A DNA stretch of 64,000 nucleotides from Patescibacteria group bacterium (lineage in GTDB: Bacteria; Patescibacteriota; Minisyncoccia; UBA6257; 2-01-FULL-56-20): the NCBI GenBank assembly GCA_038077975.1, contig JBBUGM010000011.1, positions 22,038-86,037 of the forward strand, given 5' to 3'. A program made the position numbers and the translations under genes. Under the pieces are notes generated by a model. The model was not told the DNA's origin. It saw only the letters and a list, made by a program, of their open reading frames with translations, and did not search any database. Shown piece after piece: positions 4,827-64,000 of this stretch (within the stretch, counting starts at the first letter, position 1; each line of letters starts with the position of its first letter).

Positions 4827-5273
4827 GGCTTCGATCGTCGCCAAAGCATTCGTCAGTTTGTTCGGAGTTCGGCCAAGGCATTTTGCCGTGGCATCCTTCA
4901 CGCCGGCAAGAGCGAGCACGAACCTCACTGCGCCTCCAGCCCGAAGCCCGTGGCCGTCCGAGGCGGGCTTGATCAAAACCTTTGCGGCGCTGTATTTCGC
5001 GAAAACCTCATGTGGAATAGTTCGCTGGTCTTTGAGGCCGATCTTGATGATCTTTTTCTTCGCGTCTTCTTTCGCTTTGCCGACCGCCTGGGCAACATCT
5101 ATTCCTTTTGCGATACCCACCCCAACCCTGCCCTTGCCGTCACCCAAAACAATGGTCACCCTGAAACGAAATCTTTTTCCGCCGGCGACAACACGCGTGA
5201 CCCTGCGGAGGTCAAGAACTTTTTCCTTGAATTCTTCTCTTTTGGCCACTCTTGGTGAACGATCTCTTCTCAT
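4755..5273 (-). CDS. rpsE: 30S ribosomal protein S5
   Basis: Core RVTRVVAGGKRFRFRV. Start taken at MRRDRS (M21 of the ORF). The C-terminal tail KSEARNPKSETNPNNQNSR is encoded by repeat words. Confidence 0.9.
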   Translation of the reverse strand: MRRDRSPRVAKREEFKEKVLDLRRVTRVVAGGKRFRFRVTIVLGDGKGRVGVGIAKGIDVAQAVGKAKEDAKKKIIKIGLKDQRTIPHEVFAKYSAAKVLIKPASDGHGLRAGGAVRFVLALAGVKDATAKCLGRTPNKLTNALATIEALKNLKSEARNPKSETNPNNQNSR

Positions 5274-6921: not shown

Positions 6922-7107
6922 TTACCAGCTTGCTTTTTTTACTCCTGGTATCTGTTGCATGGTCGCCATTTCCCGGAAGCAAATACGGCAGAGATTGAAG
7001 TCCCTCATGTATCCCCTCTTCCTGCCGCAGCGAAAACAGCGCCGCACTATCCGTGTGGAAAATTTTGGTTTCTTTTTACTGCGCGCGATTACAGATTGTT
7101 TTGCCAT
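6922..7107 (-). CDS. rpsN: 30S ribosomal protein S14, type Z (zinc-binding)
   Basis: 61 aa with CFRCG...CRIC cysteine pairs. Confidence 0.9.
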
Positions 7108-8586: not shown

Positions 8587-8680
8587 TGCTAACGCGAGCG
8601 ATGCCAAACTACGAATCTCATGCGAATCTACGAATTAATTTTCGAGGCATTCGCATGTATTTGTAGTTTTGAATCGCAAT
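8587..8680. repeat. imperfect palindrome containing a copy of the 32-nt MPR motif (8646-8677)
   Basis: CCAAACTACGAATCTCATGCGAAT ... ATTCGCATGTATTTGTAGTTTTG. Confidence 0.8.
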
Positions 8681-11087: not shown

Positions 11088-11432
11088 TTACGCTTTTTTT
11101 TCTTTTGCCGGTGCAACAGCCGCCGCGGTAGCGGCTCCCGCGCCCTCGGCAGACTTCATTTCGAGTTCCTTTTGCATCTTACCGCCGTGGCGCGTAAATT
11201 TGCGCGTCGGCGAAAACTCTCCCAGGCGATGGCCAACCATGTCCTCTGATACCCTTACATCAACAAAAATTTTGCCATTATGGACCGCGAACGTATACCC
11301 CACCATTTCGGGCGAGATCTCCGACGCGCGCGACCATGTTTTAATGGACGCACCCTCGCCGGGCTTCGCTCTGCCAATCTTTTTTATGATGTCCGGGGCG
11401 ACATAAGGCCCTTTTTTAGAACTGCGCGACAT
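11088..11432 (-). CDS. rpsS: 30S ribosomal protein S19 with an Ala-rich C-terminal tail
   Basis: [11 protein letters not shown] start and HNGKIFV core. 114 aa. Confidence 0.95.
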
Positions 11433-59045: not shown

Positions 59046-60071
59046 TTACTTCTTCCTCTTCAAAACTTTTTTCACCGCGTGCTTGATATCTTGAACGCCC
59101 ATTCCGTATTTCTCGATTAAAGCCGCTGGCGGGCCGGATTCGCCATAGGTGTCGTGGAGACCGACGAATTCCATGGGAGTAGGCGCGTGCTTTGCCAAGA
59201 CCTCGGCGCCCGCACCGCCCAAGCCGCCGTGAATTTGGTGCTCCTCGACCGTCACGACCGCGCCGCATTTTTTGGCTAGCTCAATAATTTTTTTATCATC
59301 GATCGGCTTAATGGTGTGGCAGTTCAACACTATCGTGCCGATTTTGCCCTGCCCTGAGCCTGTCGAAGGGTTTTTCTCCAATTCCCGCGCCGCAACCAAA
59401 GCATTATAGAGCACGCCGCCGCAGCCGATGATAAGCACATCCGCACCGCGGGATTGCCAGAAAATTTCGGCTTTCCCGGGCGTAAAAGGCGTCTGGTCGG
59501 TGGTCATCACGGGCGTTTTCTCGCGCTGGAAACGGAGGTATACCGGGCCCCACATTTGCGCCGCGGCCATCGTAGCTTTCCTTCCCTCAACGGCGTCGCA
59601 GGGAACAAAAACTTTCATGTTCGGCAAGACGCGCATCATGGCTATGTCTTCTGTTGCCTGGTGCGTCGCGCCGTCCGGCCCCACGGAAATCCCGGCATGA
59701 TGCCCCGCTACTTTCACGTTCGAGTCGTTGTAAGCGATCGTCGTACGGATTTGCTCCCAGTTCCGGCCCGGCGAAAAAGTCGCATAAGAAGATATGAACG
59801 GGATCTTGCCCGAGACGCCCAATCCGGCCGCGATCGTCGCCATATTCTGCTCGGCGACGCCGCATTCGAAAGACCGCTCTGGAAATTTCTTGAAAAACGC
59901 TTCCGCGCGAGTGGACTCGATAAGGTCCGCGCAAAGCGCGACCACGGCCTTGTTCTCGTCCCCTGCGATGATCAATCCCTCGCCATAACCATCTCTAGTT
60001 GGCGCCATTTTTAACTTATCGCTGTCAAAAATATCAATATTAAGTTGTGCTTCGGGATTGATCATGAACAA
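59046..60071 (-). CDS. transketolase, C-terminal subunit (pyrimidine-binding plus C-terminal domains)
   Basis: PTRDGYG, GVAEQNM and GPDGATHQ motifs. The RBS lies inside the 3' end of the GIY-YIG ORF. Confidence 0.9.
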   Translation of the reverse strand: MFMINPEAQLNIDIFDSDKLKMAPTRDGYGEGLIIAGDENKAVVALCADLIESTRAEAFFKKFPERSFECGVAEQNMATIAAGLGVSGKIPFISSYATFSPGRNWEQIRTTIAYNDSNVKVAGHHAGISVGPDGATHQATEDIAMMRVLPNMKVFVPCDAVEGRKATMAAAQMWGPVYLRFQREKTPVMTTDQTPFTPGKAEIFWQSRGADVLIIGCGGVLYNALVAARELEKNPSTGSGQGKIGTIVLNCHTIKPIDDKKIIELAKKCGAVVTVEEHQIHGGLGGAGAEVLAKHAPTPMEFVGLHDTYGESGPPAALIEKYGMGVQDIKHAVKKVLKRKK

Positions 60072-60362
60072 AACTTCACCCTCCTAACTTTTTATACCAA
60101 TTTTTTAAAATTTTAGCTAAGTGCCGCTTACCCCATCCAGACTTCAAAAACTTTTCTCTTACCGCTGCATCATGTTGATCCAAGTAAGACTCAATGTAAA
60201 TTGGGTAAAGCGGCACTCGATCTCGCGTGGCATAAACTTTGCCAGAATTATGCATTCCTAATCTCCGCTTTAAATCGTTGGTCATGCCGACATATTTATT
60301 ACCGTCAACTCTGCTTAGCAGAACATATACATGCCACATGGTATAAAAAGTTTGGAGGGCAA
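60066..60362 (-). mobile_element. GIY-YIG ORF cassette between the old and new transketolase 5' ends
   Basis: Bounded by the two homologous 5' coding segments. Confidence 0.45.
60076..60339 (-). CDS. GIY-YIG nuclease family protein
   Basis: 87 aa. VYVLLS...KYVGMTNDLKRRLGMHN, plus the conserved E in REKFLK. Confidence 0.85.
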   Translation of the reverse strand: MWHVYVLLSRVDGNKYVGMTNDLKRRLGMHNSGKVYATRDRVPLYPIYIESYLDQHDAAVREKFLKSGWGKRHLAKILKNWYKKLGG

Positions 60363-60443
60363 GCCGTACCCATCCCGGGTCGGTTTCTGCTCCACGTCCG
60401 GCTCAAAAATTTTTTCCGATAAATGTGCTTCCTGATTAAGCAT
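60363..60443 (-). pseudogene. displaced transketolase 5' end (MLNQEAHLSEKIFEPDVEQKPTRDGYG)
   Basis: Homologous to codons 1-28 of the functional gene (MINPEAQLNIDIFDSDKLKMAPTRDGYG). Differs at almost every synonymous site. Reading frame is lost after GYG. Confidence 0.6.
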
Positions 60444-60598
60444 AAGCGTAATACCAATATACTAATGCGTGCGAATAATACTAATGGCGCTTTAGCGCAG
60501 CATACAAATATACTAATTAACCCATTCGTATATTTGTATTATTGAGCTACAGCGATATTCGCAGTATTGGTATGAATTCGCAGATTAGCATTACATTA
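60444..60598. repeat. about 140-bp dispersed repeat, copy 3 (inverted orientation)
   Basis: Its reverse complement aligns with copies 1 and 2 over about 140 nt. Confidence 0.9.
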
Positions 60599-62005
60599 TT
60601 ATTGTAGCCCTTGCACGTTAAACGTGAAACTCTTAAAAACCATGTCTAGAAGCGCGCTTGATTTCGCTTGCGTTATAACTATCAAATAATTCCCGGGTTT
60701 TACGACAACCAACTTGTACGGCGATTCGCCGCTACCGGTGCCCACAACTTCAACTGCCGCCTTCCCGGAAATCGTGATGTCTCGCCGCGAACGTATCTCG
60801 GAGGATGGAATCAATCCCGAAAGGTTAACGGAAAGCCAAGAGTTGATACCGACATCTTCACTCACAACCTCGAAGCTCAATACGTTCGGATTGGCGGGGA
60901 CTTTGAAAAGTTCTTTTTCGTCTTCCGCCACCGTCGCGCGCTTGCTTTGCGAAGTTGCCCCAACCACGGCGTTTAATTCTGGTTTAATATCTTCAAAAAC
61001 TACATGGCTCCGCGGATATTTGAACCCGAAAAGATAAGAGGTGTTGACGTAGGCAATCCAGTTCGAGGTGTCGATTGCGACGGGCGTACTGTTATTCCCT
61101 GAGCTTGTCGAAGGGCTAGTCGCATCCAAAAACCTGAACGTGGAGAGAATTTGGTTGCTGATTTCTCTCGACTTTTCTAGATTTTTCCGGCATTTCCCCG
61201 CAACCACAGATAAACAGTCGGGTTCTATGGCAAGTTGAAAAAACACTTTATCCCGCTCTCGTGTAAATAAAATGGTATCACCGTAAAAATCTGGGGCGCG
61301 AACATCTAAAATTCTCAGCGCGCTTAAATCGTTAAGTGTAAAATATTCACTCACTGGATCGTTGTTCCCAGTAATTTCAAAAATAGTTTCTAGGTCTGCC
61401 AAATTAAACCTATCTTTTCTATAAACTTCGATATAAAAATATTCTAGATAAAATCCGGCTCCAACGTCATCCGACACGTCGACAAACGATAAACTCAGCA
61501 ACAGATCGTTATCTTTTATCTTCCACGAGTAAACGCTTTCTAAATGGCTACTGGTATCATCCCCGTATCTAAAATTGGCCGGATACTTCACCTCAAACCC
61601 AAACTCCTCGTTGCGGTAGGTACTCCAACCCTCCGTTGAAGACGTGGTATCCGTTGCAGACGTTGAAATCGTTAAAGTCTTCGGCGATGTAAATGGGTAA
61701 CAATTCCATTTTTGATCTTTTCTCTTACACCCTAAACGCATACCCATTCCGCATTCTGCTGGTGGTTCATGTCCACAGAAGCCTTGTGCCTCCACACCAT
61801 AAATAATGGGGCACTTTTCGAACTCGCAGTTCGGCCCGGTGCGGCCGACAGCGCTCCCGTCGGGACAGATTTTTGCTTCCTGCGTGCAGGCGGTGCGGCC
61901 AACTTCCTTAGGCGCAGGCAGACCAAAATACCCAACCACCCCCACGGCAACCGCGGCGAGGAAGATGAGGATGGGGAGGGCGATGAAGCCGTTGTTCGAT
62001 TTCAT
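60599..62005 (-). CDS. hypothetical secreted protein (Cys-rich N-domain, two beta-rich modules)
   Basis: 468 aa with a TM/signal segment FIALPILIFLAAVAVGVVGYF. Its ATG overlaps the RelE-like stop (ATGA). Confidence 0.6.
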   Translation of the reverse strand: MKSNNGFIALPILIFLAAVAVGVVGYFGLPAPKEVGRTACTQEAKICPDGSAVGRTGPNCEFEKCPIIYGVEAQGFCGHEPPAECGMGMRLGCKRKDQKWNCYPFTSPKTLTISTSATDTTSSTEGWSTYRNEEFGFEVKYPANFRYGDDTSSHLESVYSWKIKDNDLLLSLSFVDVSDDVGAGFYLEYFYIEVYRKDRFNLADLETIFEITGNNDPVSEYFTLNDLSALRILDVRAPDFYGDTILFTRERDKVFFQLAIEPDCLSVVAGKCRKNLEKSREISNQILSTFRFLDATSPSTSSGNNSTPVAIDTSNWIAYVNTSYLFGFKYPRSHVVFEDIKPELNAVVGATSQSKRATVAEDEKELFKVPANPNVLSFEVVSEDVGINSWLSVNLSGLIPSSEIRSRRDITISGKAAVEVVGTGSGESPYKLVVVKPGNYLIVITQAKSSALLDMVFKSFTFNVQGLQ

Positions 62006-62268
62006 TTATAAATATCGTGGGTTCCGATCTCTAAAAATAAAATGCTACCGTTTTCCAGAAGAGCGAATTTAATGCGGTAAGCGCGGTTAATCCAAAATGC
62101 CCAAAGTTCTTTTTCTCTGCCATGCAGTTTGTGAGTGCCAAGACGAGAATCGAACGGGTTGTTTCTGAAAATCCGCTCCCTCGCTTTCGCTAAGTCCTTA
62201 ATAGCGTCCGATAATTTCTTGTATTGCTTTTCGAATCTGGACGAAGTTCTGATTTCCGTTACGCGCAT
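62002..62268 (-). CDS. RelE/ParE (YafQ-like) type II toxin
   Basis: 88 aa. FEKQYKKL...THKLHG...WAFWINRAYRIKF...LEIGTHD pattern. Confidence 0.8.
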   Translation of the reverse strand: MRVTEIRTSSRFEKQYKKLSDAIKDLAKARERIFRNNPFDSRLGTHKLHGREKELWAFWINRAYRIKFALLENGSILFLEIGTHDIYK

Positions 62269-62570
62269 CGTCGGCTAATCTAGATCGCTAAGCGACTTAA
62301 TTCTTCTTGTTTTTCCAGCGCGGTACTCTCTCAATCCTTCCTCAACGAGTTTGTCCGCTCTCTCCGCCGCTTTTCCGCTCAAATAAAAAGTCGGCACCGC
62401 ACGCGCCAAAAGTTTCTTATATTCCTCAACCGGCAAAACAACGACCCCTTTCTCTTCCTTGATTCTCGATTTTTGGATAGTGATGTTGTTCATTGTTAAT
62501 AGCATAACACATAACCGTATAAAATGCATCGCTCATTTGGCGATTGTAGCTTTTTTAGCTACAATGTCTC
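62006..62570 (-). mobile_element. toxin-antitoxin cassette bracketed by about 85-bp direct repeats
   Basis: The repeats are 61921-62005 and 62571-62655. Both are copies of the 5' end of the secreted-protein gene. Confidence 0.45.
62275..62493 (-). CDS. putative antitoxin of the RelE-like toxin
   Basis: 72 aa counting from MNNITIQ. Sits 6 nt upstream of the toxin. Confidence 0.6.
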   Translation of the reverse strand: MNNITIQKSRIKEEKGVVVLPVEEYKKLLARAVPTFYLSGKAAERADKLVEEGLREYRAGKTRRIKSLSDLD

Positions 62571-62655
62571 GGCCACCAAAATACCCAACCGCCCCCACGG
62601 CAACCGCGGCGAGGAAGATAAGAATGGGGAGAGCAATGAATCCTTGGCGGTGCAT
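62533..62655 (-). pseudogene. orphan 5' fragment of the 60599-62005 gene (MHRQGFIALPILIFLAAVAVGAVGYFGG...)
   Basis: 47 of 48 nt are identical across ATCTTCCTCGCC...TATTTTGGT. Reaches a stop after 40 codons. Confidence 0.55.
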
Positions 62656-62670
62656 AAGAACTTTAAAATT

Positions 62671-62883
62671 TTATTCGAATTCTCCCTTCGGAATCTTCGA
62701 TTGCTTCACTATTGCAAGAAACGTCCCGATCGGGATCGGCTTTGCTCCGCCATGAAGCGGAACCGGCACCATTGTGCCGGATACTTTGTGGCGATAAATT
62801 TGGTGGCTGCCTTTCTGTCGAGCCAAAACAAATTCGTGTTTGGTCAAAATTTTCACGAGTTCCTTGGCGGAAAGCGGCTTCAT
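62671..62883 (-). CDS. hicA: HicA family toxin
   Basis: 70 aa. LVKILTKHEFVLARQKGSHQIYRH pattern. Confidence 0.85.
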   Translation of the reverse strand: MKPLSAKELVKILTKHEFVLARQKGSHQIYRHKVSGTMVPVPLHGGAKPIPIGTFLAIVKQSKIPKGEFE

Positions 62884-63128
62884 TACTTTGCCGGAACTGC
62901 CACCTCAACCTCGTCAACGATCGGACGAGATTTTCTGATAGGAATTCTTTCTCGATGCGCAACGAGTTCTTCGATCCACAATTCCAGGACTTCTTTGGCT
63001 TTTTCTTTTGCTTCCTCAAACGTCCTGCCGAAAGTGGCACAACCGGGAAATGCCGGGAAAGAAACGTTAAAGCCGCCTTCCTCCGCAGGATCAAAAATCG
63101 CAGTGTAATTGTAGATTTTCTGCTTCAT
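62883..63128 (-). CDS. hicB: HicB family antitoxin
   Basis: 81 aa. YTAIFDPAEEGGFNVSFPAFPGCATFGRTFEEA pattern. TAATG overlap with hicA. Confidence 0.85.
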   Translation of the reverse strand: MKQKIYNYTAIFDPAEEGGFNVSFPAFPGCATFGRTFEEAKEKAKEVLELWIEELVAHRERIPIRKSRPIVDEVEVAVPAK

Positions 63129-63323
63129 TATTTATCACTATAATGCAGAGCCGCTCGAAATGCAATTCCAATTACCAAATTGCTCAATTACCTAATTATT
63201 ATTGGCCATCTATAAATCTGAACGTTGAGAGAATTTGGTTGGGATTTTTCTTTATAAAACTAGAAGTGGGCGTAACGAGAAACTGTCGAAAGGATTGAAT
63301 TCTTAGTTAGCGCCCAGCAATCC

Positions 63324-63995
63324 CTAGACATCAAACGTTATGTACTCGTTTAAAAACGGCGTGACCAAAACGTCATTTTTCTCCAGATTTTTTATCTTAC
63401 ATACATACTCAATCTCACGCCCCCTCGGTACATTGAGCACAAACATTCCCGTGACGGGAAGAAAATTCTCGTCCCGCTCGTAATTTAAATACGCCTTATA
63501 GTATTGATCAACTCCTTCTGGAAAACGATCTTCTACCTTCATTATCGTGTCCAACGCAGACGATGCATCGACTGGATTATCAAACACGATTTCAAGAGAT
63601 TCTTTTCCGAAATACGATTTCTTGGCTGACTTTACTTGAGGATACAAGCTTTCGATTTTTTGGCCCAGTTCGTCTATGAACGCTTTAATTTCAGCAGCGC
63701 TAAATGTCCCGTCGGATCGTAGGAAAGAGCGATATTCTGGATATAAGTGTGCAGATAAAACTTTTACCGGGGGAATATATTGTCCAAGTCCGATTTTTTC
63801 TAAGAAAATGTTGGCTCGTTCGATTGAGTCGGGAGAGCCAAGTGCTGCAATTTCATGAAATATCAACGTTACACGCCCTGGCTCGAAATTGTCCTCGGAT
63901 CTGAGACTGCCGTAAAAATTAATTTCTTCTTCATAACATTTACTCAAGCCGTTTTCGTTAATCGAAAATTCGCCAAGCGGAGAAAAATCCTGCAA
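63324..63995 (-). CDS. hypothetical protein (may continue beyond the window)
   Basis: 223-aa ORF. I recognise no motif. Confidence 0.45.
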   Translation of the reverse strand: MQDFSPLGEFSINENGLSKCYEEEINFYGSLRSEDNFEPGRVTLIFHEIAALGSPDSIERANIFLEKIGLGQYIPPVKVLSAHLYPEYRSFLRSDGTFSAAEIKAFIDELGQKIESLYPQVKSAKKSYFGKESLEIVFDNPVDASSALDTIMKVEDRFPEGVDQYYKAYLNYERDENFLPVTGMFVLNVPRGREIEYVCKIKNLEKNDVLVTPFLNEYITFDV

Positions 63996-64000
63996 AGAAG

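Follow-up and report, generated by a model that had tools for sequence, protein, structure and literature searches.

A repeated gene start around a RelE-type toxin-antitoxin pair in a Patescibacteria genome: most likely an ordinary recombination scar

The locus considered here lies near the end of a 64,000-nucleotide (nt) stretch of a Patescibacteria group bacterium genome (contig JBBUGM010000011.1, positions 22,038 to 86,037), hereafter called the window. It comprises a toxin-antitoxin (TA) pair with a RelE-type toxin, placed between two direct repeats of a gene start. One repeat opens an intact gene (g468) for a secreted or membrane-anchored protein of 468 amino acids (aa), and the other opens a 40-codon open reading frame (ORF), hereafter the stub. 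In the first-pass annotation, this layout had been read as a TA cassette inserted near the beginning of g468, leaving a displaced copy of the gene start upstream. The analysis described here indicates instead that the repeated gene start is most likely a recombination scar of an ordinary kind, rather than the mark of a new mode of TA-cassette insertion. The ORFs of g468, the toxin, the antitoxin and the stub were all recovered as originally placed, and all the genes discussed are encoded on the - strand. The features of the locus are the following, with loci from other contigs and genomes cited by L numbers throughout.

60599-62005, - strand: g468, intact gene for the 468-aa secreted or membrane-anchored protein, recognized from its ORF, a weak Pfam PsbP_2 match and its homologues
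61922-61990, - strand: 5′ signal-anchor module, g468 copy (GFIALPILIFLAAVAVGVVGYFG), from the repeat alignment
62002-62268, - strand: toxin gene, 88 aa, predicted RelE/YoeB/YafQ fold, its stop overlapping the g468 ATG as ATGA
62275-62493, - strand: antitoxin candidate, 72 aa, constant upstream partner of the toxin, from an uncharacterised family
62501-62509, - strand: candidate extended -10 element (TGTTATGCT) read from the sequence, with its end 7 nt ahead of the antitoxin ATG
62533-62655, - strand: 40-codon stub ORF, apparently what is left of a formerly full-length paralogue next to hicA, namely its 5′ end with the signal anchor and GGRDIVAKKATI
62543-62565, - strand: hairpin with a 9-bp stem and an AAAAA loop (ATTGTAGCT-AAAAA-AGCTACAAT)
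62575-62643, - strand: 5′ signal-anchor module, stub copy, 91% identical to the g468 copy and 80% to that of the 271-aa gene
62671-62883, - strand: hicA toxin gene, 70 aa, Pfam HicA_toxin (E 2e-16, 60.1 bits, above the gathering cutoff)
62883-63128, - strand: hicB antitoxin gene, 81 aa, Pfam HicB_lk_antitox (E 1e-10, 42.2 bits, above the gathering cutoff)
~63196-63251, - strand: 3′ paralogue remnant, ending in NPNQILSTFRFIDGQ and two stops, out of frame with the upstream gene and located upstream of hicB
63324-64000, - strand: 3′ part of the 271-aa gene (g271), whose start lies ~140 nt outside the window (L001 7867-8682) and carries a third copy of the module

To begin with, the arrangement was recovered in at least six independent contigs, obtained from different samples and with different assemblers, at identities of 99.9-100%. 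These were contig CAYIAC010000001.1 of the Patescibacteria metagenome-assembled genome GCA_964361345.1 (groundwater) and five further contigs from other samples or assemblers, and the variants among them were confined to positions 60506-60569. The contigs stem from Hainich samples (ERR3858118, ERR3858133, ERR3858135, ERZ1292638 and ERZ1292640). Neither an empty site nor an alternative allele was found among the contigs carrying the exact g468 or toxin proteins, all of which belong to one population.

The direct repeat of about 85 bp that had been described was confirmed, although in a shorter form, with an alignable length of 69-73 nt and an identity of 91% over 69 nt. Only two copies within three mismatches were present in the window and none appeared in shuffled sequences; therefore, the repeat is not due to chance. 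The identity in its core amounted to 44/45, with 46/48 in the best 48-nt window (47 of 48 had been reported), and the longest identical run was 28 nt. The first 4-5 codons of g468 and the stub were unrelated (MKSNN and MHRQ, respectively). Moreover, the copy at the start of g271 (MIFSRKGFIALPILIFLAALAVGVVGYFGGREIVAKKAATLR) brings the number of module copies to three within 2.2 kb, besides the 3′ remnant upstream of hicB.

The stub begins 15 nt past hicA and is intact from its ATG to its stop, a TGA at 62533-62535, encoding MHRQGFIALPILIFLAAVAVGAVGYFGGRDIVAKKATIAK. Its homology to g468 ended at 69 nt, after the membrane segment, where g468 reads LPAPKEVGRTAC, while past this segment the stub tracked g271 for another 30 nt (25/30, 83%), the overall match to g271 extending over 101 nt at 82%. 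Furthermore, 38 of its 40 residues were aligned at 76% identity to a full-length 205-aa protein of L112 (A205), and identities of 50-55% were found to two proteins of L113 (P0006 and P0010). Of the six differences in 69 nt between the stub and g468, five were synonymous third positions (P ~0.008), and 12 of the 16 codons differing between the stub and g271 were synonymous as well, so that the copies diverged as working coding sequences. The stub was thus homologous along its whole length to the N-termini of full-length proteins, and full-length genes followed hicA in L100-L104, L097 and L112, at the place occupied here by the stub. As judged from these alignments, the stub was shown to derive from a paralogue. 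The proposal that it duplicates the start of g468 through cassette insertion was not upheld, since its tail follows g271 and the relatives and nearly all its differences from g468 are synonymous. On the other side of the stub, ~23 nt separate its stop from the candidate -10 element of the TA pair, which would therefore place the breakpoint between ~62510 and ~62545. The homology of the stub to its family broke off ~4-13 nt 3′ of the hairpin, and the same was observed for that of g271.

The hairpin at 62543-62565, previously annotated as perfect, was indeed a perfect palindrome with 9-bp arms. In one gene subfamily, it forms part of the coding sequence (IVAKKATI) and directly follows the signal anchor, and the same palindrome was found at codons 30-38 of full-length relatives. 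In L112, it appeared as ATCGTAGCTAAAAAAGCTACGAT in both A205 (11228-11250, - strand) and a second paralogue, B222 (8600-8622, - strand). In L113, the copies were at 4941-4963 and 7012-7034: P0006 carried ATTGTTGCTAAAAAAGCAATAAT, with one G.U pair, and P0010 carried ATTGTTCCCAAAAAGGGAACAAT, with the peptide IVPKKGTI and a stem kept by three compensatory pairs. In addition, g271 retained 7 bp of the hairpin (L001 7963-7985). For the five distinct sequences available, a small sample from three genomes, 95.6% of the alignment cells were paired and four of the nine pairs had changed on both sides, values reached by only 2-4 of 500 shuffles, whereas slid controls gave 18-53% of paired cells and no compensations. 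Some of the compensatory changes altered amino acids. Four of the five sequences folded with z-scores of -4.7 to -6.2, and only 10 such hairpins were counted in 2.8 Mb of sequence, a length that includes both strands, five of them at this coding position.

The hairpin was absent from g468 and from other subfamilies, with no consistent hairpin at that place in the other family members. A covariance model run over 1.33 Mb of loci recovered the training copies only, besides weak matches at E values of at least 0.5, two of which fell on the corresponding codons of L008 and L114. The Rfam search of 60000-64000 gave two sub-threshold chance matches and none for the hairpin. Judging from its coding position and its recurrence in full-length genes, the hairpin is inherited from the ancestral coding sequence and is not an insertion scar; because of this, its possible role as a terminator or operator is secondary. 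As for such a role, there is no U-tract, and ~35-55 nt separate the hairpin from the likely -10 element downstream of it. Frameshifting by -1 at the AAAAAA run was likewise rejected by reasoning from the sequence, the run being the hairpin loop and not in the frame of a slippery heptamer.

The 88-aa protein encoded next to g468 is predicted to be a divergent toxin of the RelE superfamily. Its AlphaFold model reached a mean predicted local distance difference test score of 93.2 and a predicted template modelling score of 0.83, and nearly all of the top 50 Foldseek matches in the PDB were members of the RelE superfamily (YoeB, YafQ, RelE and HigB), with template modelling scores up to 0.79 and a probability of 1.00. 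By sequence, the protein was below the curated cutoffs for PF15738 (YafQ_toxin; 22.9 vs. 30 bits) and TIGR02385 (RelE_StbE; 22.9 vs. 27.9 bits), and direct sequence searches of the toxin and the antitoxin against the PDB returned nothing meaningful. A profile built from 47 toxin homologues matched HigB with an E value of 0.002. A total of 141 homologues were found, many of them annotated as RelE/StbE or YafQ, as is the toxin itself in the sources, and positions H46, K47, H49, R65, H84 and Y87 were invariant in the family alignment.

The same 72-aa gene preceded the toxin in five genomic contexts, including L088, L089-L092, L093-L096 and L112 (72 aa in L088, L089, L093 and L112), and the nucleotide homology of the TA pair to L088 spanned exactly from the antitoxin ATG to the toxin stop. 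For this antitoxin candidate, 101 representative homologues were collected, seven of 49 giving weak PhdYeFM_antitox matches (best E 0.006); the window protein gave none, and the antitoxin profile had no relative in the PDB. Upstream of it, the element at 62501-62509, of the form TGnTATrCT, was shared with L112 (TGCTATACT, at the same spacing), and similar elements were seen in L089 and L093, although the promoter scan did not call the one in the window. With a -10-like element ending only 7 nt before the ATG, the sequence therefore suggests that the TA transcript may be leaderless.

The toxin stop does overlap the g468 ATG as ATGA, as had been described, and an in-frame TAA directly precedes that ATG. 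However, the view that the cassette is translationally spliced onto its host gene through this overlap was not sustained. Such an overlap is an ordinary operon style in this compact genome, and the ATG of g271 overlaps the stop of the neighbouring DUF5671 gene in the same way. Directly upstream of the stub, hicB and hicA overlap by 1 nt, and homologues of this HicB at 80-88% identity sit between secreted-protein genes in relatives. NCBIfam gave no matches for the antitoxin, HicA, HicB, g271 or g468. As regards mobility, no recombinase ORF was found between 62000 and 62660 and no inverted repeats flanked the TA pair. In the island as a whole, there was no integrase-like ORF and there were no imperfect inverted repeats around the modules, no dedicated attC model having been run. 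On viral contigs, neither the 5′ module pattern nor relatives of the toxin were found. In L089-L092, TA modules were found stacked (HicBA, MNT/HepT, HicBA and the antitoxin/RelE-type pair), with a 53-nt repeat at 94% identity before both hicB genes, and several of these contigs ended ~170-200 nt past the toxin.

Among the secreted-protein genes, the product of g468 combines a signal anchor at its N-terminus with a Cys motif (ACTQEAKICPDGS...CEF.KCP) and a pair of PsbP_2-like domains, the first of which ends in NQILSTFRFLD. Homologues of g468 occur in the same island of L113 and L114, where the transketolase gene is split into two halves (tktN and tktC) that enclose the island, and no full-length relative above 35% identity was found in the homologue search. 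In the case of g271, the gene looks chimeric, the family 5′ module being followed up to the hairpin and then replaced by a body unrelated to the family, in which neither a Cys motif, nor a PsbP-like domain, nor any Pfam or NCBIfam match was detected. The 3′ remnant resembles the end of the first domain of g468 (61123-61168), with 35 nt at 89% and 46 nt at 85% identity, and a full-length gene ending in ILSTFKF precedes hicB in L102 and L025. The promoter-like sequence for hicBA obtained in the promoter scan (TTCAGA-16-AATAAT, 63222-63195) overlaps this remnant. A weaker trace, KNSILSTVSRY, was visible at ~63272-63304, right after the g271 stop.

The island was then compared across the 80 genomes with tktN that were scanned, in which tktN and tktC were usually adjacent or separated by the DUF5671 gene alone, the variable extras between them including GIY-YIG genes, Hic modules and secreted paralogues. 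L113, among the closest relatives (tktN 86%, tktC 81%), showed the order tktN-paralogue-DUF5671-paralogue-tktC, with no TA module, no stub and no GIY-YIG gene. The order in L100-L104 (HicB 80%) was tktN-DUF5671-X-hicB-hicA-Q348-(60 aa plus a 192-aa nucleotidyltransferase-like gene)-199 aa-tktC, where Q348 and the 199-aa gene had the first 251 nt in common at 90% identity and differed in their bodies. In particular, L102 presented the layout hicBA-paralogue-TA-paralogue-tktC. L112, the only true family member among eight loci retrieved by a degenerate pattern scan of metagenome contigs, read pfkB-hicBA-A205-g414-antitoxin (69%)-toxin (57%)-B222. Here, A205 starts with MTNNRGFIALPILIFAAAVAVGVAAYFGGYFDIVAKKATIESNK, continues with a WxTYRNEEYGFEVKYP domain and ends in ILSTFRFIK, and it shares 238 nt at 88% identity with B222. 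Hence, full-length tandem paralogues at the place of the stub, with 5′ repeats of 238-251 nt bracketing TA modules, were found in L102 and L112, which is largely the state that was expected to speak against an insertion. As to whether other copies of this TA pair are flanked by duplicated gene starts, no such repeats were found in L088 and L093, and in L112, where the family is also bracketed by repeats of the downstream gene start, the upstream repeat heads a complete gene. A secreted-protein gene followed the Hic module directly in L097 and L114.

Several further observations were made on these islands. The tktN-tktC gap behaved as a hotspot in L008-L087, L100-L104, L113 and L114, varying from empty, through DUF5671 alone, to several kb in which nucleotidyltransferase-type pairs also occur besides the GIY-YIG genes, Hic modules and secreted paralogues. 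A TA module was located immediately upstream of a secreted paralogue in L112 (8050-11924), L102 (596-3526), L114 (2576-4515) and L097 (1241-1692); the TA families and the chromosomal positions involved differ among these lineages. L101 (4010-4207), L103 (4010-4207) and L104 (4199-4402) carry an ORF of 65-67 aa whose similarity to the neighbouring paralogues is confined to their N-terminal part, constituting another gene-start stub. Within the window, a GIY-YIG ORF (60076-60339) has 21-nt inverted repeats at its two ends (60079-60099 and 60339-60359), and a 42-codon ORF (60315-60443) corresponds to the native tktC start, matching the tktC of L008, while in the working tktC a diverged start has taken its place. 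Furthermore, the ~80-100 nt directly upstream of the tktN start (L001 4790-4891) are duplicated at 92% identity before the displaced tktC start (~60436-60540); the duplicate includes a palindromic stretch and may be a shared leader or promoter of both transketolase halves.

Taken together, the stub is proposed to be the remnant of a neighbouring sister gene in a hypervariable array, whose body was lost by illegitimate recombination (probability about 0.7). The setting is an island of roughly 6 kb between tktN and tktC, holding an array of secreted-protein paralogues that share conserved 5′ ends (the signal anchor, followed by the hairpin in one subfamily) and 3′ ends (ILSTF[KR]F), with type II TA modules (HicBA, and the RelE-fold toxin with its 72-aa partner) interleaved among them. 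The paralogue after hicA would once have been full length, and illegitimate recombination a few bases 3′ of the hairpin would have removed its body, leaving the stub abutting the promoter region of the TA pair. The favoured route is a single deletion in an array of the type hicBA-paralogue-TA-paralogue; starting from a state such as that of L102 or L112, this is the simplest one, and replacement by an incoming unit made of a TA module plus a paralogue is less favoured. The direct repeat of 91% identity reflects the conservation of the 5′ module across the family and not a target duplication, probably with gene conversion between the module copies. It may be that TA addiction limits deletions to the module edges, deletions into a TA module being counter-selected, and stubs would therefore survive at such edges. 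About 28 nt of homology is roughly enough for occasional RecA-mediated recombination. The 28-nt identical run could thus allow the TA pair to be excised by RecA, rebuilding an intact gene next to hicA.

Several points weigh against this reconstruction. No genome close enough to show the immediate ancestral state was found, and for that reason deletion and replacement cannot be told apart; in addition, the exact genes are known from one population only and the nearest species-level relatives carry different island contents. The modules of L112 are at a different chromosomal position, around a g417 homologue, and the pattern hicBA-paralogue...TA-paralogue may be recurrent and not inherited. The stub, with its ORF intact, may have some residual function, and the 44/45 identity of its core to g468 needs gene conversion or a recent common origin. 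Finally, L114 and L025 present a simpler order (hic-paralogue-tktC), with a Hic module by a single paralogue beside tktC, and an insertion into one gene would be compatible with it.

The last point also bears on a tentative alternative, to which a minor share of the probability is given, namely that the TA pair entered the resident gene after hicA together with the 5′ part of a donor paralogue, displacing the resident 5′ end as the stub. In this form, the insertion with a displaced copy that had first been suggested would be defensible. The left junction would then be illegitimate, just 3′ of the hairpin, and the right one a homologous crossover in the body encoding the Cys motif and the PsbP-like domains. 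Besides L114 and L025, such an import would be in keeping with the contiguity of antitoxin, toxin and paralogue at another locus in L112, with the native 5′ stub and the diverged replacement 5′ end of the neighbouring tktC, and with the synonymous divergence expected between donor and recipient homologues. However, a two-ended event with one illegitimate end is needed, while L102 and L112 already present the order paralogue-TA-paralogue, from which one deletion suffices; besides, no chimera boundary was detected in g468 and no close donor was found, the best full-length homologue of g468 being 35% identical. Far less probable is the insertion originally suggested, that of a mobile TA cassette ~28-37 codons into g468 with the ~85 bp of its start duplicated as a target duplication. 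The direct repeats bracketing the TA pair and the overlap of the toxin stop with the ATG would agree with it. Nevertheless, taken literally, this model is contradicted by the copies being 91% identical with mostly synonymous differences, by the different start codons and first 4-5 codons, by the stub tail tracking other paralogues instead of g468, by the existence of a third copy, by the ancestral coding nature of the hairpin, by the lack of a recombinase gene or terminal inverted repeats in the cassette, and by the other copies of the TA pair without such repeats.

The 40-codon ORF might, on the other hand, be a functional gene for a small membrane protein, for instance a peptide co-expressed with hicBA. 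Its intact frame 15 nt after hicA, the membrane segment kept under mostly synonymous change, the perfect hairpin and the 65-67-aa N-terminal stub ORF also retained in L101, L103 and L104 could be so explained. Yet the ORF is known from one population only, nothing in relatives corresponds to its last codons and stop, all its homologues are N-termini of proteins of 200-520 aa, and divergence before truncation explains the synonymous pattern equally well, which makes this function improbable. An assembly artefact is the least credible of the explanations, with a practically negligible probability: repeats of 70-100 nt can mislead short-read assemblers and the repeated 5′ modules might have done so, but the order was identical in at least six independent contigs at 99.9-100% identity, with variants at 60506-60569 only, and it is therefore not a misassembly. 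A more ambitious idea is rather unlikely. The 5′ module with its hairpin and the 3′ ILSTF[KR]F end might act as portable recombination handles that shuffle the bodies of surface-protein genes, with TA-plus-paralogue units travelling and protecting the arrays. The boundary of the exchange would then be marked by the hairpin, as a functional site in RNA or DNA. The point where the stub is truncated and the one where g271 passes into its unrelated body both fall within ~4-13 nt 3′ of the hairpin.

Overall, the finding is ordinary in kind, the coding hairpin and the adjacency of TA modules and paralogues being modest curiosities. The idea of TA cassettes that splice onto host genes with duplication of the gene start was tempting, but it is unsupported and has been removed. 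What the locus illustrates is the turnover of an accessory island in ultra-small groundwater bacteria, in which secreted paralogues with homogenised ends are combined with TA modules and scars lie at the module edges. Two by-products were a coding hairpin preserved by compensatory changes right after the signal anchor of one subfamily, and the recurrence, across several lineages, of a TA module that immediately precedes such a paralogue.

Compared with known systems, the toxin resembles the RelE/ParE superfamily (RelE, YoeB, YafQ and HigB) in its length of 88 aa, its fold (template modelling score of 0.79), its small conserved upstream partner gene and its invariant His, Lys, Arg and Tyr positions. 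It differs from the named families in its sequence scores below the curated cutoffs and in an antitoxin without a match to any curated family, its activity being predicted only. Like the remnants that illegitimate recombination or deletion leaves in tandem paralogue families whose gene ends evolve in concert, the locus has 5′ and 3′ stubs flanking retained genes, an abrupt break of identity, and 5′ ends at 88-91% identity on diverged bodies; it differs from them in a breakpoint next to a conserved hairpin and in TA modules at both scars. The likeness to the neighbouring GIY-YIG/tktC case (60076-60443), which had been pointed out from the start, holds for the layout, that is, a gene-start stub, a selfish gene and an intact gene in this order, but not for the origin: there, tktC is a single-copy gene whose true orthologous start is the stub (as it matches L008) and 21-nt inverted repeats flank the element, while here the stub comes from another paralogue and no mobility gene accompanies the TA pair. 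The variable surface lipoprotein families of Mycoplasma (vlp, vsa) have conserved 5′ ends and variable bodies, and the present paralogues are similarly surface or secreted proteins with conserved 5′ leader-coding modules on divergent bodies. Unlike in those families, no invertase, phase-variable repeats or silent-cassette organisation were seen here, and all copies are in direct orientation.

Regarding the superintegron of Vibrio cholerae, its TA cassettes limit large deletions, as reported in PMC7167474, citing Szekeres et al. (2007). The island differs from it in that an integron integrase and attC sites were not seen (no dedicated attC model was run), in that its repeats are the conserved coding ends of paralogues, and in that stabilisation by TA modules is putative here. 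It is like the superintegron in being a hypervariable region where self-contained two-gene TA modules with their own promoters lie among repeat-flanked accessory genes, and in that deletions appear to stop at the module edges. Should TA modules indeed stabilise such arrays, the principle of the Vibrio superintegron would hold for organisms with minimal genomes as well.

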